Source: Ignavibacteriales bacterium
GTDB taxonomy: Bacteria; Bacteroidota; Ignavibacteria; UBA10030
NCBI GenBank assembly: GCA_016207365.1
Contig: JACQPU010000042.1
Location: 1 to 26,322, forward strand
Reading direction: 5' to 3'
DNA length: 26,322 nt
Both the position numbers and the translations under genes were made by a program. The notes beneath the pieces were generated by a model. It was not told the DNA's origin. It saw nothing but the letters and a program-made list of their open reading frames with translations, and made no database searches. This document shows positions 13,120 to 22,780 of this stretch, in pieces. The number at the start of each line of letters is the position of its first letter. Position 1 is the first letter of the stretch.

Positions 13120-14508
13120 CTACTTTCTTGCCTTCAGTATCCTCGTCCAATGAACAATCTGCTTTTTTACTTCCTGTGGAGAGGTGCTCCCTGCCGACCT
13201 CTTTTGCTCTACGCTTTGATGGGGTAGGAGATGGTCAAAAATATCCGCTTCGAAATGCTTTGAAAATGTTCTAAGGGTTTCGAGGTCAAGGTTCCCGAAG
13301 TACATTCTGTGGTCGATGCAATACGAGACGATTTTGCCGGTAATCTCGTGCGCGGCGCGGAATGGCAGTCCTTTCCGCACCAGATAGTCCGCTACGTCCG
13401 TCGCTGTCGTAAAGTCGTTCCGCAGTTCTTCTTCCAAATGATCCTTCCGGAACTCCGTATGCACAAACATGTGGGACATAACAAACAGGGATGTGCGAAT
13501 CGTGTTCATTGTGTCAAAAAACGGCGCTTTATCTTCCTGCATGTCTTTGTTGTAGGCGAGGGGAAGGGCCTTCATCATGGTCAGGAGATTCATGAGGTTT
13601 CCATACACCTTTCCCGTTTTCCCGCGAATAAGCTCGGCTATATCCGGATTTTTCTTCTGCGGCATGATGCTGCTTCCTGTGGTATAAGCATCGCTGATGT
13701 CAACGAACGCAAACTCCCGCGTTGACCAAAGGACCAGCTCCTCGGCCAATCTGCTCAGATGCATGGCAAGAATTGAGCATGAAGAAACGCATTCAAGGAG
13801 ATAATCCCGGTCACTCACTGCATCAATGCTGTTTTCCACAATCCCATCGAACCCCAGCTTTCTGGCCACCCTGAGCCGATCGATTGGAAACGACGTTCCC
13901 GCCAGGGCTGCGGCGCCAAGAGGCGATTTGTTGGCCCGCCTCAGACAGTCATTCAGCCGGTCATAATCCCGATCGAACATGGACACATAGGCCAGAAGGT
14001 GATGTGACAACAACACGGGCTGTGCGCGCTGGACATGTGTATAGCCCGGCATGAGAACGCTAAAGTATTTCTCGGATTTGTACAATAGGACACGCTGAAG
14101 GTGTGTAATGAGTTTTTGCAGTTCGCGCGCGGAGGTGCGAAGATAGAGACGCTCATCGAGGGCTATCTGGTCGTTTCGGCTGCGCCCTGTGTGCAATTTT
14201 CCGCCCAGTGGACCGATCTTCTGGATGAGTCGATGCTCAATTGCCAGATGAATGTCTTCAAAATCATCGCTGAGCTGAAACTTCCCCGTTTCGATTTCTT
14301 TCTGGATGGCTTTAAGTGCGTTCCGGATCCTCCGCGCTTCCTGAGCGCTAATAATACGGCAAACCGAGAGCATTTCAACATGGGCAATGCTCCCTGCGAT
14401 ATCCTCCTGGTATAATTGCTTGTCGAGATCGATCGATGTGGAAAAATTCAGAGCGGCTTTGGATAGTGATTCTTTGAATCGCCCGCTCCAGAGAGCCTTA
14501 TGCGACAT
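13120..14508 (-). CDS. argH: Argininosuccinate lyase
   Basis: LWSGRF, KLHTGRSRNDQ, GSSIMPQKKNPD signature, YNKDMQEDK. Confidence 0.98.
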   Translation of the reverse strand: MSHKALWSGRFKESLSKAALNFSTSIDLDKQLYQEDIAGSIAHVEMLSVCRIISAQEARRIRNALKAIQKEIETGKFQLSDDFEDIHLAIEHRLIQKIGPLGGKLHTGRSRNDQIALDERLYLRTSARELQKLITHLQRVLLYKSEKYFSVLMPGYTHVQRAQPVLLSHHLLAYVSMFDRDYDRLNDCLRRANKSPLGAAALAGTSFPIDRLRVARKLGFDGIVENSIDAVSDRDYLLECVSSCSILAMHLSRLAEELVLWSTREFAFVDISDAYTTGSSIMPQKKNPDIAELIRGKTGKVYGNLMNLLTMMKALPLAYNKDMQEDKAPFFDTMNTIRTSLFVMSHMFVHTEFRKDHLEEELRNDFTTATDVADYLVRKGLPFRAAHEITGKIVSYCIDHRMYFGNLDLETLRTFSKHFEADIFDHLLPHQSVEQKRSAGSTSPQEVKKQIVHWTRILKARK

Positions 14509-14545
14509 GAGGGGTACTCAGGATTGTGTGAGAAAAGTGACAGGC

Positions 14546-14574
14546 AAGATAGGGAAAAATGGGGGGGAGGGCAA
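14546..14574 (-). promoter_or_regulatory. Independent sigma70-like promoter for argH
   Basis: On the minus strand: TTGCCC (14574-14569), 17 bp spacer, TATCTT (14551-14546). No ARG box seen nearby. Confidence 0.5.
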
Positions 14575-14590
14575 TGGGAGATTGCGTACT

Positions 14591-14740
14591 GCGGATTGTT
14601 TACCCGCCGAAGGCATTTGTGCCGAAGGCGGGCGGATTGTTTACCCGCCGAAGGCATTTGTGCTGAAGGCGGGCGGATTGTTTATCCGTCGAAGGCCTGC
14701 GTGCCCACCATAAATCACGGTGGGTAAACCGGCAGGCAGG
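14591..14740. repeat. Composite palindromic (REP-like) element: about 2.6 tandem copies of a 41-bp unit plus a nested hairpin
   Basis: Unit GCGGATTGTTTACCCGCCGAAGGCATTTGTGCCGAAGGCGG starts at 14591 and 14632, with a partial copy at 14673-14696. It is followed by CCTGCGTGCC...GGCAGGCAGG (14696-14740) enclosing CCCACC-9nt-GGTGGG. Confidence 0.88.
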
Positions 14741-14772
14741 CGGTTTAGGGCTCACCATTCGCCGGGTACCGT

Positions 14773-15204
14773 TCACTCTTGGCTTCTCACATGCTGAATC
14801 ACTACCGCCTGGCAATACACTTTGATCTGATCCCGAACGGTCCGAAACGCTGCGAGAATTTCGGAATCCGTTCCGGTAACTTTGGCTGGGTCCTGGAAAT
14901 CGTGGTGGAGTTGACGAACGCGGGCGGGAAAGTACGGACATTGTTCCCGGGCATTGTCACATACGGTAATCACGATATCAAAGTCTTCTTGGGAAACGGC
15001 GTCGATGGTTTTGGACGTGTGCCCTGAGATGTCCACTCCCGCTTCCTGCATCACCTGCACCGCTCGTGGATTCAGACCGTGGGCTTCTATCCCTGCGCTG
15101 TACACATCAACCCGGTCACCGGCAAAATGCCGCAACCACCCTTCGGCCATTTGGCTTCGACAACTGTTCCCCGTGCAGAGGACAAGAATTCGTTGCTTTG
15201 CCAC
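14773..15204 (-). CDS. arsC: Arsenate reductase, LMW-PTP/thioredoxin-coupled family
   Basis: CTGNSCRS P-loop, TVCD...CP redox cysteine pair, DP acid loop; lies in the ars cluster. GTG start. Confidence 0.92.
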   Translation of the reverse strand: MAKQRILVLCTGNSCRSQMAEGWLRHFAGDRVDVYSAGIEAHGLNPRAVQVMQEAGVDISGHTSKTIDAVSQEDFDIVITVCDNAREQCPYFPARVRQLHHDFQDPAKVTGTDSEILAAFRTVRDQIKVYCQAVVIQHVRSQE

Positions 15205-15215
15205 TTCCTATGCGT

Positions 15216-15656
15216 TCAGGCCAATTGTTTGATCATGCACACGGCGGTCGAAGGACAGTATAGCCGGTATTCCTTCGATGCTTTGACAAATTCGGGGATT
15301 TGGGTTTTCGGGACAGTAATGAAGCCATGGTTCGCGAAGAATTTCTCGGCCGTTGTCGTTAGCAAGGCCACCTGCTTCACTCCCATCTGTTTCATGGAGG
15401 AGAGAATCGCATTGGAAAGAATGCCTCCCAGGCCTTTGCCGCGGTCGGGAACACGGACCGCAAGCGACCGAAGGAGGGCCTCAGTTCCAGAGATCTCTGC
15501 TCCCACAACACCGACGATAATCCCGTTGTCTATTGCAACAAGAAAACACTGAAGATGCTCGTCGATGTCGGCCGCCGGAAGATCGTTTTCGTCGAGGAGG
15601 AATTTAACGGCCTCCCGGTCGGCAGCAGTAGCGTTGCGGAGATCCCATTGAGTCAT
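15216..15656 (-). CDS. arsN2: GNAT N-acetyltransferase, ArsN2-like (short ArgA/N-acetylglutamate-synthase-related)
   Basis: LLRSLAV, RGKGLG acetyl-CoA motif, LLTTTAEKFF..HGF, C-terminal EY..YCPSTAVCM. ATG 15656 is 1 nt after the arsM stop. Confidence 0.75.
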   Translation of the reverse strand: MTQWDLRNATAADREAVKFLLDENDLPAADIDEHLQCFLVAIDNGIIVGVVGAEISGTEALLRSLAVRVPDRGKGLGGILSNAILSSMKQMGVKQVALLTTTAEKFFANHGFITVPKTQIPEFVKASKEYRLYCPSTAVCMIKQLA

Positions 15657-15657
15657 G

Positions 15658-16458
15658 TCAAGCCTTTTCTCCCATGACGGTAATGCTTTCAATGCGCGCG
15701 TTTGATCTGCGATATGCTTCAAGATCCGCGGGAGAAAGAATCCCGGCAAGCTGGTCATCCGAAATATCAATTCTTTTTTCCTTCGTAACCCTCACATTAC
15801 GAAATCCGGCTTTTTGAATCAAGCTGAGATACTCATCCCGAAGCAACGCTCCGGCAACGCATCCCGCGTAAAGCTCCGCAACCGATCGAAGGGCTGAGGG
15901 CAAAGGAGCCGACAGGACAACATCCGAGATGCTGAAATGGCCGCGCGGTTTCAGAACGCGATGGATCTGTGCGAAGGCCTTTTGCTTGTCCGGAACCAGG
16001 TTCAGAACGCAGTTGCTGATAACGACATCAATGGAGCCTGATTCAACTGGAAGGTCTTCAATATCGCCAAGATGGAATTCAATATTGTTGTATCCTAGCT
16101 TCTGCCTGTTGGCCTCTGCTTTCTGAATCATTGTAGGTGTGAAGTCCACACCTATGACTCGTCCCGTTTCTCCAACAAGCCGACGGGCAACAAAAACATC
16201 ATTGCCCGCTCCGGAACCCAGATCAAGAACCACATTGCCGGACCGGATTCCCGCCCCGTCAGTCGGAATGCCACACCCCAGGCCAAGGTCGGCCTCCGGC
16301 ACATAACCTACGAGACCCGCGTAGTTGTCCGCCATGATGGGCTCTTCTGAGCACCCGCATCCAGGCCCGCAACATGACGATGATGCTGGCACGGAGCGCA
16401 CCGCGATTTCCCCGTATTTCTCTTTCACGATTTGTTTTAAATCCTGTCCCGTATCCAT
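15658..16458 (-). CDS. arsM: Arsenite S-adenosylmethionine methyltransferase
   Basis: N-terminal SCC, LGLGCG, VLDLGSGAG SAM motif, ISNCVLNL and AGCVAGA cover all conserved ArsM cysteines. Start MDTGQDLK with an AAGGA RBS just after the arsR stop. Confidence 0.95.
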   Translation of the reverse strand: MDTGQDLKQIVKEKYGEIAVRSVPASSSCCGPGCGCSEEPIMADNYAGLVGYVPEADLGLGCGIPTDGAGIRSGNVVLDLGSGAGNDVFVARRLVGETGRVIGVDFTPTMIQKAEANRQKLGYNNIEFHLGDIEDLPVESGSIDVVISNCVLNLVPDKQKAFAQIHRVLKPRGHFSISDVVLSAPLPSALRSVAELYAGCVAGALLRDEYLSLIQKAGFRNVRVTKEKRIDISDDQLAGILSPADLEAYRRSNARIESITVMGEKA

Positions 16459-16471
16459 TGTAGTCCTTTCT

Positions 16472-16804
16472 TCAGCAACACTGCTTGTAGTTTGTTTTAA
16501 GATGATCAAAGAATTCCCCAAGGGAATCGGCTACTTCTTCGAGTCGTTTCCAATGAATGCAATAACATGATTTCGGACCTTCGATTTCCCCGGTAATAAG
16601 CCCGAGTGACTTCAATTCTTTTAGATGTTGCGAGACGGTGGCTTGGGCAAGTGGAATGAGATTTACAATCTCACCACAAACGCACTCGCGACGTTTTGAC
16701 AATTCCTTTAAAATGGCAATCCTTGCCGGATGCGCCAGCACTTTGCAGACCTCCGATAAGTCAACATCCTTCCTGCCGAATAAATGCGTTTTGCTTTTTG
16801 GCAT
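16472..16804 (-). CDS. arsR: ArsR/SmtB-family As(III)-responsive repressor
   Basis: LAHPARIAIL, ECVCGEIV, QATVSQHLKELK helix-turn-helix, SCYCI, C-terminal CC. Confidence 0.93.
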   Translation of the reverse strand: MPKSKTHLFGRKDVDLSEVCKVLAHPARIAILKELSKRRECVCGEIVNLIPLAQATVSQHLKELKSLGLITGEIEGPKSCYCIHWKRLEEVADSLGEFFDHLKTNYKQCC

Positions 16805-16809
16805 GGCTT

Positions 16810-16829
16810 TTATCGTAATATTACGATAA
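16810..16829. promoter_or_regulatory. ArsR operator, perfect 20-bp palindrome
   Basis: TTATCGTAATATTACGATAA is its own reverse complement and lies 5 bp upstream of the arsR ATG. Confidence 0.85.
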
Positions 16830-16874
16830 TAAAATCAAAAAAGTTTCACCCCTCAAGGAAAAAAAGGTCAGTGG

Positions 16875-18116
16875 CTATTTGCGGCCTTTTCTGGCCACTC
16901 TGCGCTTCTTGGAGAGCCCGTTTTTGTTGATTCTGTAGTAGGTTTTGAGAGGAAGGCTAAAAATCTTGATGAATCCTTCGCTTGCTTTGTGGTCGAATGA
17001 ATCTTCCTCGGTGTACGTAGCCAGGCCACTATCGTAAAGCGAGTTCGGCGATGTTCTTCCCGCGATCTCCACATTTCCTTTGTACAGCTTGAGTTTGACA
17101 AGTCCATTAACAACTTTTTGCGTTTCGTTGATAAAGGCATCGTAGGCAAGGCGGAGCGGCGAGAACCACAGACCATTGTAAATCAGATCCGCATAGTCGT
17201 GAGCAATTTTTGCCTTAACATGCATCACATCTTTGTCAAGCGTCAGTCGCTCCAGTTCCCTGTGCGCAAAGTGTAATGCCACAGCCGCAGGCGCTTCATA
17301 GATCTCGCGGGATTTGATGCCGACGAGCCTGTTCTCCACAAGATCCATCCGACCAACCCCGTTCGCCCCCGCAATCACATTAAGTTCCTCAATCAGGTCA
17401 AATCCCTTCAGATATTTGCGATTCAGAGCGAATGGAACCCCTTCGCGAAAGTCGATCGTGACATACTGCGCCTTGTCGGGAGCTTGTTTCGGAGAGGCCG
17501 TTCGTTGATATGCATCTTCGGGCGGCTCAGCCATCGGATCTTCCAGAATTCCACATTCAATGCTCGTACCCCAAACGTTCTCATCGATCGAATACGGGCT
17601 TTTCTTTGTCGCCGTAACCGGTATCCCATGTCGTTCGCAATAGGCGATTTCTTCCTCTCTTGACCTGAATTCCCACTCGCGCACGGGAGCGAGCACCTTG
17701 AGTTCAGGCGCAAGGGCCGCCACCGCCGCTTCGAACCGAACCTGATCGTTTCCCTTGCCTGTGCATCCGTGAGCCACGGCCGTACACCGCTCTCTCCGCG
17801 CAACATCCACAAGGGCCTTCGCAAGCAGCGGGCGCCCAAGAGATGTCGCCATTGGATATGTGTGCTCGTACAGAGCCCCGCCTTTGAGCGATGGCCACAG
17901 GTATTCTTCGACAAACTCATCCCGCAGATCCTGAATGTAAACTTTCCGGGCTCCCGTTCTGTAGGCCTTGTCTGCAAGTCCTGCAAGTTCCTTTCTCTGT
18001 CCAAGGTTTCCCGTAACCGTTACAATCTCGGCGTTGTATCGTTCCTTCAGCCAGTGGACAATGACCGACGTGTCCAACCCTCCCGAATATGCCACGGCAA
18101 TGCGTTGTTTCTTCAC
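16875..18116 (-). CDS. argG: Argininosuccinate synthase
   Basis: [41 protein letters not shown] start with GAGAGGAGA RBS. Confidence 0.98.
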
Positions 18117-18174
18117 AATGTCTCCTCTCGTGGTGGTTTCACCGCACTATTCACAAACTGAATATCATGGCAAC

Positions 18175-18645
18175 TCAAGAACTTGCCGCCGGCCGCCTTC
18201 GGGCTTGCTCAGACATCAGGGACCGAATTACTCTCATCACATCCGGTATTTTCTTGACGGACGCGGGAGTGACAAGAATTGTGTTGTCTCCGGCAAGCGT
18301 GCCAAGCACGAGCGGATGACGAAGATTGTCAATAATCTCCGCCACTCCCTGCGCGCGTCCGGGTAACGTTTTAACAACAACGACAGACTCGTTCGCCCGA
18401 ATGCCTTCAATTTCGTAACCGAGGAAGGCTCTCATTTTTTGCTCTTCGTTTTCAGGCTGGAGGACATAACGTGGACCCTCAGGTACACTCACGCGCCCAA
18501 CGCCCAGCTCACGGAGATCCCGTGACAATGTAGCCTGTGTGACCGCAAATCCTGCTTTTTTCAACGCCTGAGCCAATTCCTCCTGTGTCGCAATTATCCG
18601 CTGGCCCAGAATTTCCTTGATCGCCAATTGACGCTTCTGTTTCAT
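18175..18645 (-). CDS. argR: Arginine repressor
   Basis: TQEEL, VTQATLSRDL DNA-binding motif, KTLPGRAQ, GTLAGDNT. Confidence 0.96.
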   Translation of the reverse strand: MKQKRQLAIKEILGQRIIATQEELAQALKKAGFAVTQATLSRDLRELGVGRVSVPEGPRYVLQPENEEQKMRAFLGYEIEGIRANESVVVVKTLPGRAQGVAEIIDNLRHPLVLGTLAGDNTILVTPASVKKIPDVMRVIRSLMSEQARRRPAASS

Positions 18646-19589
18646 GCTGAAATACCTCGAACTTTCTTCGTATCGTGTCTTATTGCCCCTGGAGCACAGA
18701 GGCCCGCCAAGACAGCCTTTTGCACATGCAGCCGGTTTTCGGCCTGATCAAATACCACCGACCGGGGGCCGTCAATCACCCCATCAGTAATCTCCTCACC
18801 GCGATGAGCCGGAAGACAATGCATCACCAAACAATCCGCCAGTGCTGCATTCATGAGCGCTTCATTTACCTGATAGCCCGCAAATGCCTTCTTCCTCCGT
18901 TCGGTCTCTCTTTCCTGACCCATGCTTGTCCACACATCGGTGTACACAACATCGGCGTTACGCACAGCCTCCATAGGGTCGTTCACAATATCAATTTTGC
19001 TAACACCTGCCGCCCGTGCCCGGCGCACGATAGACTCGTTTGGATAATAATCTTTTGGCGCTGCGAGAATGAAGTGAAGAGGGTAAAGCGCCGAAATCTC
19101 CAGCCAGGAGTTCACAACGTTGTTCCCATCGCCAATGAATGCAACTGTGAGCCCTGGATTCAGTTTCCCGTACTGCCGGATCGTGTAGAGATCGGCCAGA
19201 ACCTGGCATGGATGCGAAAGATCCGTGAGGGCGTTGATGACGGGAATCGTTGAATGACGGGCAAGATCAACAAGGACGCGGTGTTCGAACAGCCGTGCTA
19301 CGATCGCCGTACAATATCGTGACAAGAGAAGCGCCACGTCATGCACGGATTCCCGTGTACCGATCCCAATGCTTTCCTGAGACAGGAATGTCGTATGCCC
19401 CCCCAGCTGTGTCACAGCAACTTCGAAGGAGACTCGTGTACGCAGCGATGGTTTCTGAAAAATAAGTGCAACTGTTTTCCCCTCGAGAGGCAATCCCGAC
19501 TGGCCGGATTTCAGCAAGTCTGTGCGCTCAAAAAGGCCGACCAACTCTTCGCTAGTAAGATCAAAGAGCGTCAGGAAATCTTTTGTCAT
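18642..19589 (-). CDS. argF: Ornithine carbamoyltransferase
   Basis: FQKPSLRTR, HPCQ, DVWTSMGQE, HCLPAHRG. Confidence 0.96.
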   Translation of the reverse strand: MTKDFLTLFDLTSEELVGLFERTDLLKSGQSGLPLEGKTVALIFQKPSLRTRVSFEVAVTQLGGHTTFLSQESIGIGTRESVHDVALLLSRYCTAIVARLFEHRVLVDLARHSTIPVINALTDLSHPCQVLADLYTIRQYGKLNPGLTVAFIGDGNNVVNSWLEISALYPLHFILAAPKDYYPNESIVRRARAAGVSKIDIVNDPMEAVRNADVVYTDVWTSMGQERETERRKKAFAGYQVNEALMNAALADCLVMHCLPAHRGEEITDGVIDGPRSVVFDQAENRLHVQKAVLAGLCAPGAIRHDTKKVRGISA

Positions 19590-20479
19590 GATCCGGTCCC
19601 GTTGCGGCCGTTGTCCTTGTCGTGCAGCATTTGGGTGCCAATTCCCTCATCCGTAAAGATCTCAAGCAAAAGGGAGTGCTTGGCCCTTCCATCCACAATG
19701 TGCACTTTGCGAACCCCTGCCTCGAGCGTTTCAAATGCGGACCGGACCTTGGGGATCATTCCGCCAAAGATCTCCCCGCCGTCGATCATTCGTTGCGCCT
19801 CGGTCCGCGTCAGCGTGGATACCCGTCCGCCGGCTCCCAGAATTCCCTCAACATCACTCAAGTACACAAGTTTTTCCGCCTTCAGCGCCGATGCCACGGT
19901 TGCCGCAGCAAGATCGGCGTTGACGTTATAGACCTCGCCCGAAGGTCCCGCCGCCAACGGGGCAACGACCGGCATGAGGCCATTTCGAAGAAGCATCTCA
20001 AGAAAAGCTTCATGCACCGTGGAGACGACGCCGACATACCCAAGATCAGGTCCGTCGGCTGACAGCGGGTGTGCCTTCAATAATCCGTTATCCAGCCCGC
20101 AGATTCCAATCGCGTTTCCGCCGTTGCGGTTGATGAGATGAACGATCTCCTTGTTGAGTTTTCCGGCAAGAACCATCAACACAACACGAACCATGGCTTC
20201 GTCTGTGTACCGTTGACCATCCACAAAACGCGTTTCAATGCCAAGAGCTGAGGCCACATCCGTAATCTCTTTCCCACCCCCGTGAACAATGACAATATTG
20301 ATCCCGATTTTTTTCAGGATCGTGACATCCTTTGCAAAGGTTTGCTTTAATGCCTCATCGGTCATGGCCGCTCCGCCGTACTTGATGACGAAGGTCTTAC
20401 CCTCGTACGTTTGAATGTACGGCAGTGCTTCGATAAGCACTTCTTCCTTGGTGGCGTAATCGATGGCTTTTGTGTTCAC
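19586..20479 (-). CDS. argB: Acetylglutamate kinase
   Basis: VIKYGGAAM, VHGGG, RYTD, NVNAD, GGMIPKV. Confidence 0.97.
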   Translation of the reverse strand: MNTKAIDYATKEEVLIEALPYIQTYEGKTFVIKYGGAAMTDEALKQTFAKDVTILKKIGINIVIVHGGGKEITDVASALGIETRFVDGQRYTDEAMVRVVLMVLAGKLNKEIVHLINRNGGNAIGICGLDNGLLKAHPLSADGPDLGYVGVVSTVHEAFLEMLLRNGLMPVVAPLAAGPSGEVYNVNADLAAATVASALKAEKLVYLSDVEGILGAGGRVSTLTRTEAQRMIDGGEIFGGMIPKVRSAFETLEAGVRKVHIVDGRAKHSLLLEIFTDEGIGTQMLHDKDNGRNGTGS

Positions 20480-21696
20480 GACCGGTAGCTCGCGTTAATG
20501 TGTACGTATTCTTTTGTCAAATCACAGGTCCAGAATCGCACTTTTTCATGACCGCGATTCAACTCGATTGTGATCAGAACTTGCTCCCGGGCAAGCGCGG
20601 CTGCAGTCTTTTGCTCATCGAGGACAATTTCATATCCTTTGTTCAGCACCGGCAGATTGTTGATCCGAATTTCCACAATCCCGGGATCCACAGGGGCGCC
20701 TGAGTAACCGACTGCGGCCATGATTCGCCCCCAATTTGCATCGTTGCCGTGCATAGCAGTTTTCACCAAATTCGAGTTAGCCACCGAGCGGGCGACGACT
20801 TCGGCCTCCTGCTCAGTACTTGCCCCCTTCACATATACTTCGATGAGCTTTGTCGCTCCCTCGCCATCCCGTGCGATCATTTTTGCAAGTTTGATCATCA
20901 CGTACTCCAGCGCCGAACTGAAGAGCTGAAATTCCTCCGAATGCTCGCCAAATGGTTCATTATTTGCCACCCCGTTCGCCAGTACCAACGCCATGTCATT
21001 CGTGCTCATGTCCCCGTCCACCGTGATCCTGTTGAAAGACTTGCGGTTTGCACAATGGAGAGCTTTCTGAAGCATGCGGTGATCAATGACTGCATCCGTG
21101 GTGATGAATGCCAGCATGGTGGCCATGTTCGGCGCGATCATTCCGGATCCCTTCGCCATCCCGCCGATTCTCACCACCGTTCGGCCGAGCGTAAACTGTA
21201 CGGCCGCTTCTTTTTTGTAGGTATCCGTGGTCATAATCGCTTCGGCGGCGCTTTGTCCGCCCGACTCGTTGACCAAAGGAATGAGTTCGCGGATTCCGGC
21301 CAGGACTTTGTCCATCGGCATATATTGACCAATTACGCCTGTGGACGAAACTATAACTTGTTCTTCCGGAATCCCAAGTCCATGGGCTGCGGTCCTCACC
21401 ATTTCCCATGCATCGTTGAGGCCCCGCTCGCCCGTACAGGCGTTGGCATTTCCACTGTTTATGATCACGGCCGAGCAGAGGGAAGATCGCTGAAGTTGAA
21501 CCTTATCGACGAGGATTGGAGCGGCAAGAGTCCTGTTTTGCGTAAATACGGCTGCAACGCGTGAGGGCCGGTCAGATCGAATGATCGCCAGATCTTTCTT
21601 TGCTTTTCGTATTCCACAATAGACTCCCCCGGCCGTAAACCCGCGGGGCAATGTCACTCCGCCCTGACATTCGTGGACATCACCGTTCGATTTCAC
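20476..21696 (-). CDS. argJ: Ornithine acetyltransferase (possibly bifunctional with N-acetylglutamate synthase activity)
   Basis: NSGNANACTG, STGVIG, AIMTTDT, KGSGMIAPNMA|TML autocleavage site, DGEGATK. Confidence 0.97.
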   Translation of the reverse strand: MKSNGDVHECQGGVTLPRGFTAGGVYCGIRKAKKDLAIIRSDRPSRVAAVFTQNRTLAAPILVDKVQLQRSSLCSAVIINSGNANACTGERGLNDAWEMVRTAAHGLGIPEEQVIVSSTGVIGQYMPMDKVLAGIRELIPLVNESGGQSAAEAIMTTDTYKKEAAVQFTLGRTVVRIGGMAKGSGMIAPNMATMLAFITTDAVIDHRMLQKALHCANRKSFNRITVDGDMSTNDMALVLANGVANNEPFGEHSEEFQLFSSALEYVMIKLAKMIARDGEGATKLIEVYVKGASTEQEAEVVARSVANSNLVKTAMHGNDANWGRIMAAVGYSGAPVDPGIVEIRINNLPVLNKGYEIVLDEQKTAAALAREQVLITIELNRGHEKVRFWTCDLTKEYVHINASYRS

Positions 21697-22709
21697 AGGA
21701 GTGCCTCCGATTCGTTAAACCCCAGCATCAGGTTCATGTTCTGGACCGCCTGACCCGCAGCGCCCTTCACAAGGTTGTCAATTGCCGAAAGCAGAATCAC
21801 GCGGCCTGAGTCATTGTCAATAGAGAATCCGATATCAATGTAATTGGTATGGACTACGTGTTTGATTTCTGGAACCGGAATGAACCGGACAAACGGCTCT
21901 GAAGCATAGTACTGCTGAAAAACACCATGAATCTTTTCAGACGTTGCGCCCGATGCCAGCGGCGCGGAAATCGTCGTATAAATCCCTCGTATAATGGGAA
22001 GCAGGTGCGGAACGAACGTAAAGGATACGGCGGAAGATGAAAACTCGCGAAGAGCGCGGGCAATTTCAGGTATATGCTGGTGGGTGCCGACTTTGTATGC
22101 TTTGACCGATTCGCACACTTCCGCAAACGAGAGTTCAGGCGATGCGCTCCGTCCGGCACCTGAAACGCCTGACAGCGAATTGATCACAATGCCGGTACTT
22201 TCAATGAGATGTTCTTTCAGAAGAGGAAGAAGCGGAAGAAGGACGCTTGTTGGGTAACACCCCGGGTTTGCTACAAAGGTCGAATGTCTGATATTGGCGC
22301 GATTCCATTCGGGAAGTCCATAGATTGCCGTACCCAGAAGATGTTCCGCCGTATGAGTTCGTTTGTAATATCGCTCATAGACGCCGGCACCGTCCAAACG
22401 GAAATCTCCGCCCAAGTCAATAACGCGTTTCCCCCGGCTAAGGAGTTCCGGGACCAGATTCATCGCTTCGCCGGAGGGCAAAGCGATGAAGACCATATCA
22501 CTTTGGCAAGCGGCTTCGGGTGAGTATGGTTCCAGAAGTGCATCCAGAATTCCCAGAAATCGCGGCAGGACATCCTGAACCCGTTTCCCGGCCGACGCAT
22601 GAGCAAAGAGTTTGCCGATCGTAACAGAGGGATGCCTGGAAAGAATTGTAAGAAGTTCGGCGCCTGAGTACCCCGACGCGCCGACAAGAGAAACCACGGC
22701 GTTTGGCAT
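21693..22709 (-). CDS. argC: N-acetyl-gamma-glutamyl-phosphate reductase
   Basis: VGASGYSG, ANPGCYPT with the catalytic Cys, SGVSGAG, DNLVKGAAGQAVQNMN. Confidence 0.98.
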   Translation of the reverse strand: MPNAVVSLVGASGYSGAELLTILSRHPSVTIGKLFAHASAGKRVQDVLPRFLGILDALLEPYSPEAACQSDMVFIALPSGEAMNLVPELLSRGKRVIDLGGDFRLDGAGVYERYYKRTHTAEHLLGTAIYGLPEWNRANIRHSTFVANPGCYPTSVLLPLLPLLKEHLIESTGIVINSLSGVSGAGRSASPELSFAEVCESVKAYKVGTHQHIPEIARALREFSSSAVSFTFVPHLLPIIRGIYTTISAPLASGATSEKIHGVFQQYYASEPFVRFIPVPEIKHVVHTNYIDIGFSIDNDSGRVILLSAIDNLVKGAAGQAVQNMNLMLGFNESEALL

Positions 22710-22742
22710 GTATAATTATACAAAAATGTGAATAATTATGCA
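22709..22742. promoter_or_regulatory. Tandem ARG boxes (ArgR operator)
   Basis: TGTATAATTATACA (22709-22722, perfect palindrome) and TGAATAATTATGCA (22729-22742), centres 20 bp apart. Both match the TGAAT-N4-ATTCA ArgR consensus and overlap the promoter. Confidence 0.9.
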
Positions 22743-22743
22743 A
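22715..22743 (-). promoter_or_regulatory. arg operon promoter
   Basis: On the minus strand: TTGCAT (22743-22738), 17 bp spacer, TATAAT (22720-22715), then only TATAC before the ATG. Confidence 0.8.
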
Positions 22744-22754
22744 GAAGAAAATAT

Positions 22755-22780
22755 AAAAAAAGCCCCGCTGTGGACGGGGC
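22755..22780 (-). terminator. Rho-independent terminator of the outer-membrane protein gene
   Basis: On the minus strand: GCCCCG-TCCACAG-CGGGGC followed by TTTTTTT. Confidence 0.88.

Follow-up and report, generated by a model that had tools for sequence, protein, structure and literature searches.

An arsenic operon between argG and argH

The 26,322-nucleotide stretch of DNA analyzed here (the window; contig JACQPU010000042.1 of GenBank assembly GCA_016207365.1, from an Ignavibacteriales bacterium) carries four arsenic resistance genes, arsR-arsM-arsN2-arsC, between argG and argH of an arginine biosynthesis gene cluster. Our reading, to which we give about three chances in four, is that these genes make up three units lying side by side and not a composite operon, and that the ars genes were inserted once, their location being a historical accident. 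The first unit would be argC-J-B-F-R-G, with a predicted promoter overlapped by two ArgR boxes; the second, arsR-arsM-arsN2-arsC, would be an ordinary detoxification operon with its own promoter under an ArsR operator; and the third would be argH, behind a promoter-like block of its own. The ars module would have entered before four genera diverged from their common ancestor, at a point with a cell-wall amidase gene on one side and argH on the other, and a later loss of the amidase gene in the window's genus would have placed arsR 70 to 110 nt from argG. The module is probably kept as the genome's only copy of arsM, and not for its neighbors.

The nested gene order had been recognized in the original prediction for this DNA, and it is borne out by the open reading frames and their Pfam and NCBIfam matches. 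That prediction went on to propose a dual-input unit answering to both arginine and arsenite, As(III), with a neutral insertion as the alternative. The dual-input proposal is unsupported, as ArgR boxes lie only at argC, the ars promoter is of a generic kind, argH has its own promoter-like block, and the linkage recurs in none of 60 loci sampled elsewhere; the neutral insertion is the better-supported of the two.

Control regions of the three putative units

The 70-nt spacer between argG and arsR (16805-16874, minus strand) contains a T-run, a −35-like TTGAGG (16851-16856), a −10-like TTTATTAT (16826-16833) and, just upstream of arsR, a perfect 16-bp palindrome (16812-16827). This palindrome, which had been predicted to be the cassette's own ArsR site and which we treat as a candidate operator, occurs only once in the window, where 0.05 matches would be expected by chance. 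In all 8 genomes with the nested arrangement, the sequence before arsR has the form CTTGAC-N17-TATCTT or CTTGAC-N17-TTTATT followed by TATCGTA-N4-TACGATA, both in those with argG directly upstream and in those with the amidase gene there. That block also stands before arsR in some 30 ars modules that lie elsewhere, at unrelated loci, in the family, the order, and the class. Because it is kept at so many unrelated loci, the block suggests that the cassette carries its own promoter and operator, without adaptation to its arginine context. As the candidate operator overlaps the ars promoter, ArsR would be expected to repress the operon and As(III) to induce it.

A second promoter-like block stands before argH, with a −35 element TTGCCC (14569-14574, minus strand) separated by 17 nt from a −10 element TATCTT (14546-14551). 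The pattern TTGCyC-N17-TATCTT, 35 to 45 nt before the argH ATG, is found in all the nested genomes and in most members of the family that lack the nested cassette. Its retention in genomes with and without the cassette indicates that argH is probably promoted separately in either case. With promoter-like blocks before both arsR and argH, the stretch does not have the form of a single ArgR-controlled operon that includes the ars genes and is free of internal promoters. Short motifs of the CAATC type recur many times between the argH block and its ATG (14509-14700, minus strand) across the family, for example in G062, G080, G083, and G076.

At the head of the cluster, the predicted argC promoter (22709-22743, minus strand) consists of a −35 element TTGCAT (22738-22743), a 17-nt spacer, and a −10 element TATAAT (22715-22720). 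A pattern search placed two tandem ARG boxes over it, at 22729-22742 with no mismatch and at 22709-22722 with 1 mismatch. Their palindromic cores, each of 14 bp, are set 20 bp apart, and the second box abuts the argC ATG; tandem ARG boxes also precede argC in 10 family genomes. No ARG box with up to 3 mismatches was found near arsR, argG, or argH, and one match inside arsN2 is likely due to chance. The gene upstream of argC ends in an intrinsic terminator detected by the terminator scan (22762-22780).

The layout of this region (22707-22743, minus strand) is unusually compact, the TATAAT ending 5 nt before the argC ATG and the second ARG box taking in the A of the start codon. Because the −10 element lies so close to the ATG and the ARG box reaches the start codon, argC may be translated from an mRNA with little or no leader. 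The short-leader layout is common to G043 and G037, and other family members have a longer leader.

A variable interval between argG and argH

The original prediction took argCJBFRGH to be normally contiguous, and in the window's family this does not hold. ArsM, ArgG, and ArgH were searched in 86 genomes (33 genera) of the family, and 40 arg loci were retrieved and mapped by tblastn; the gap counts are based on the approximately 60 family genomes that have argG and argH on one contig. The two genes are less than 700 bp apart in only 5 of these. In about 25, the gap measures approximately 2.0 to 2.6 kb and holds one same-strand gene, which encodes a secreted protein of 596 to 626 amino acids with AMIN and Amidase_3 domains. 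In about 21 more, it extends to between 2.8 and 24 kb, and additional DNA is found on one side or the other of the amidase gene, at the argG|amidase or the amidase|argH junction. Since most gaps hold the amidase gene and many hold further cargo, contiguity is not the family norm, and the argG-argH interval takes up unrelated genes.

The cargo of the large gaps is diverse, comprising two type II restriction-modification systems, secreted proteins of up to 2192 amino acids with type IX secretion system (T9SS) tails, a TonB-type receptor, a GH3 glycosidase, and a TldD/PmbA-like protein. The two restriction-modification pairs, in which an N6_N4 methylase accompanies an EcoO109I-like or TdeIII-like endonuclease, both lie at the argG|amidase junction, in two congeneric species (L057:1840-3602 and L060:3399-6164). 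The amidase itself, an AmiC-like cell-wall enzyme of about 600 amino acids, is encoded in the argG-argH interval of about 45 family genomes (for example, L033:5757-7577, plus strand), and in G063 its gene begins just 23 nt past argG. The window's genus is without it, as are G013, G057, and G081. The arginine genes upstream also vary, argF being missing from the cluster at six loci (L041, L042, L047, L048, L049, and L050), where argB is directly followed by argR.

Distribution and origin of the nested cassette

The ars cassette lies inside the argG-argH gap in 8 genomes from 4 genera. Three genomes of the window's genus, the source genome (G000), G043, and G044, have the order argG-arsRMN2C-argH, and the other five (G062, G063, G037, G038, and G035) have argG-amidase-arsRMN2C-argH; in G037, the contig stops after arsC and argH is on another contig. 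All 8 assessable genomes of the four genera (g1, g12, g13, and g25) are nested. In a tree of ArgG plus ArgH from 39 genomes, from which G037 was excluded as its argH is not on the same contig, the 7 remaining nested genomes fall on one side of a single branch (Shimodaira-Hasegawa-like approximate likelihood-ratio test [SH-aLRT] support of 90), so that one change is needed. This pattern fits a single old insertion. No amidase orthologue was found anywhere in the genomes of the window's genus, and this genus therefore appears to have lost the amidase after the ars insertion.

Outside these four genera the association disappears. The rest of the family carries an arsR-arsM-(arsN2)-(arsC) module at other loci. 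Among ArsN2 loci in other families and orders of the class, none of 20 has an arg gene within about 6 to 7 kb, and among ArsM loci spread over the phylum none of 40 has one within about 6 kb. The linkage of ars and arg genes thus looks like a single historical event, with no recurrence in the 60 sampled loci. As to the synteny that the original prediction proposed to survey, the arrangement is not peculiar to the source genome, and the presence of the module at unrelated loci in relatives supports the neutral reading over the functional one. Elsewhere in the literature, a genome paper on Arcobacter thereius (PMC5495459) mentions both an ars operon and argininosuccinate, and its title hints at no link between ars and arg genes.

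The source genome, a groundwater metagenome-assembled genome, is 73% complete and in 321 contigs, and the GC content falls to 0.47 around arsR. Both features might suggest that the cassette was recently acquired by horizontal transfer, or that the assembly of this one genome is chimeric. The sequencing runs found for this DNA were all DNA metagenomes. We regard this as extremely improbable. The same nesting is found in 7 further assemblies across the 4 genera, with divergence that tracks that of the flanking genes, and a contig of an independent soil metagenome spans the argG-arsR junction; for these two reasons the junction is real and the nesting is not an assembly artefact. No direct or inverted repeats were found flanking the cassette, and no integrase or transposase open reading frames and no tRNA gene were found between argG and argH. 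Compared with the window, the closely related soil-metagenome strain has 9 bp inserted where argG ends (16874) and lacks 1 bp shortly before the arsR ATG (16808), and the argG-arsR junction is therefore polymorphic between strains.

Gene identities and the role of ArsN2

Every gene identity in the stretch is backed by a Pfam or NCBIfam match, and all the genes lie on the minus strand. The putative ArgR-controlled arginine biosynthesis unit (16875-22709) comprises argC (21693-22709), argJ (20476-21696), argB (19586-20479), argF (18642-19589), argR (18175-18645), and argG (16875-18116), the last with an NCBIfam score far over the cut-off. From argC through argR, every junction is a 4-bp overlap, and 58 nt separate argR from argG. 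Beyond the ars genes lies argH (13120-14508), whose product matches the argininosuccinate lyase model TIGR00838 at 606 bits, also far over the cut-off.

Within the cassette, arsR (16472-16804) encodes an ArsR/SmtB repressor (NF033788, 65.8 bits against a cut-off of 55; HTH_5) that has a CVC motif (Cys41 and Cys43) and a C-terminal Cys-Cys pair, the cysteines expected for As(III) binding. The arsM gene (15658-16458) encodes an As(III) S-adenosylmethionine (SAM) methyltransferase of 266 amino acids (NF008823, 321.5 bits against a cut-off of 263; Methyltransf_31), with an N-terminal cysteine cluster, the conserved cysteines Cys62, Cys150, and Cys200, and a SAM-binding fold. Its start is most likely the ATG at 16458, 13 nt past the arsR stop; the longest open reading frame, from a TTG at 16521, is disfavored as it would overlap arsR. 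One nt past the arsM stop begins arsN2 (15216-15656), whose product belongs to the ArsN2 clade of GNAT acetyltransferases (NF040501, 133.6 bits against a cut-off of 125). The tail of this protein (15216-15260), YCPSTAVCM, includes two cysteines, Cys134 and Cys140. The last gene, arsC (14773-15204), has a GTG start and encodes a thioredoxin-type arsenate reductase of the LMWP family (LMWPc); although it scores 2 bits short of the TIGR02691 cut-off (172.3 against 174.3), Cys10, Cys82, and Cys89 are present, as expected for the thioredoxin type. In such an operon, ArsC would reduce arsenate, ArsM would methylate arsenite, and ArsN2 would act as an acetyltransferase.

No efflux pump gene (arsB or acr3) was found in the cassette. 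Many ars operons are without a pump, so that a pump is not strictly defining. The sole acr3 gene detected in the source genome is partial and lies at the edge of contig C271, adjoining prfC (L097:2750-3478, minus strand).

The position of arsN2 invites a metabolic explanation, in which ArsN2 is the arginine pathway's N-acetylglutamate synthase, or acts on a glutamate-like intermediate of that pathway. Its clade is described in PMC6465285 as nearer to N-acetylglutamate synthases than to phosphinothricin acetyltransferases. The protein matches ArgA-type models weakly, it has a weak similarity to the short N-acetylglutamate synthase of M. tuberculosis (5yge, E 0.003), and argA is absent from the cluster. 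Set against these points, the score is over the ArsN2 cut-off and far under every ArgA cut-off, and ArgJ is present and can recycle the acetyl group. ArsN2 is also absent from 12 of 23 sampled family genomes, all of them at least 99% complete, and those of them that were checked keep the arg cluster. Its homologs outside the four nested genera are mostly found with arsenic genes, with arsR, arsM, or arsC beside 17 of the 20 ArsN2 loci that have no arg gene nearby. An N-acetylglutamate synthase or glutamate-directed role is thus very unlikely.

Possible read-through across the junctions

Several features weigh against the reading of three independent units. The original prediction noted no terminator hairpin in the argG-arsR spacer, and this is confirmed by a terminator scan, which found none, and by folding, which was no better than for shuffled sequence (z −1.0 to −1.2). 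For all three genomes of the window's genus, scan and folding gave no convincing terminator between argG and arsR, although canonical ones are used elsewhere, as at 22762-22780 upstream of argC. In amidase-bearing relatives, the ars promoter likewise abuts the upstream stop codon. With no evident terminator and an ars promoter that abuts the upstream stop, read-through from the ArgR-controlled unit into the ars genes is possible. The cassette has also been stable in the gap across four genera, while other cargo varies even within one genus. The single-insertion history has its own weak points, as the tree that places the nested genomes together uses the flanking ArgG and ArgH themselves in place of genome-wide markers, and the ArsM tree has poor resolution, though it does not force more than one origin. 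Finally, promoter and operator activity is inferred from conservation alone.

These features could be read as signs of a coupled unit, in which low arginine, through ArgR derepression, would allow transcription to read into arsRMN2C, or As(III)-induced ars transcription would run into argH, with the coupling selected. One benefit might be to shield arsenate-sensitive steps, such as ornithine carbamoyltransferase and the acyl-phosphate intermediates. Beyond the missing terminator in G000, G043, and G044 and the retention of the arrangement across 4 genera, such coupling would be helped by the loss of the amidase, which put the ars genes directly behind argG in the window's genus, and by the arsC-argH spacer of G044, which is short and unstructured. 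A narrower version confines the selected link to the window's genus, where, after the amidase loss, arginine limitation would co-express the ars genes by read-through or As(III) induction would extend into argH, possibly with ArsN2 acting on a glutamate-like substrate. If shown, this would be a modest example of regulatory co-option.

The 264-nt arsC-argH spacer of the source genome (14509-14772, minus strand) points the other way. It contains a hairpin with a 9-bp stem (14704-14724) and 2.6 copies of a 41-bp tandem repeat (14591-14696) in addition to the argH promoter-like block, and it is strongly structured (fold z −4.08), which would hinder read-through. As the spacers of relatives are far shorter or different, this structure appears to be lineage-specific. 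The 41-bp repeat occurs at this locus only, with no copy found elsewhere in the 73%-complete source genome. It includes a CAATC-type motif, and the related soil strain has a different short repeat, (CGGATTG)n, in the same spacer.

The lack of ArgR boxes near arsR or argH, an ars control region that is the same at unrelated loci, an argH promoter-like block that extends to genomes without the cassette, a gap that collects unrelated cargo, and the absence of a second, independent ars-arg linkage in the 60 sampled loci all count against coupling. We therefore consider a selected dual-input unit unlikely, and its genus-restricted version distinctly unlikely. The sequence gives no sign that read-through is selected. 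The gene identities, the conservation of the control elements, the distribution of the cassette, and the varied content of the gap are shown; for three adjacent units with an accidentally placed ars operon we infer, in addition, active promoters, an active operator, and a location that is neutral to selection.

Significance and comparison with known systems

A cassette that strikingly interrupts a biosynthetic operon can here be accounted for by a gap that lies between two separately promoted units and into which unrelated genes have come in related genomes. Apart from annotation, the locus is of little consequence, as the ars operon is ordinary and of a known kind and its position, though unusual, can be explained. 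The comparison also provides conservation footprints of control elements for an uncultured Bacteroidota clade, namely, a candidate ArsR operator, tandem ARG boxes, and the argH promoter-like block.

Operons of the ArsN2 type correspond to arsN clade 2 (Nadar et al. 2019, Commun Biol, PMC6465285). These ArsN2-containing ars operons resemble the one in the window in being same-strand and ArsR-regulated and in combining ArsR, ArsM, an ArsN2-type GNAT protein, and a thioredoxin-type ArsC; they differ in that here there is no efflux pump and the operon lies between argG and argH.

The arginine genes follow the pattern of arg operons controlled by ArgR/AhrC, with tandem 14-bp ARG boxes over the −35 and −10 elements and argR inside the operon that it is predicted to control. 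In contrast to those operons, the boxes are at argC only, and argH is displaced, with a promoter-like block of its own and no ARG box. The argG-argH interval, for its part, resembles an integration hot spot in the general sense, a gap between two core genes with different, unrelated cargo in different species, including restriction-modification systems. The ars insert departs from this concept in that it is without an integrase, tRNA gene, or flanking repeats, and in that it is old and stable across four genera.

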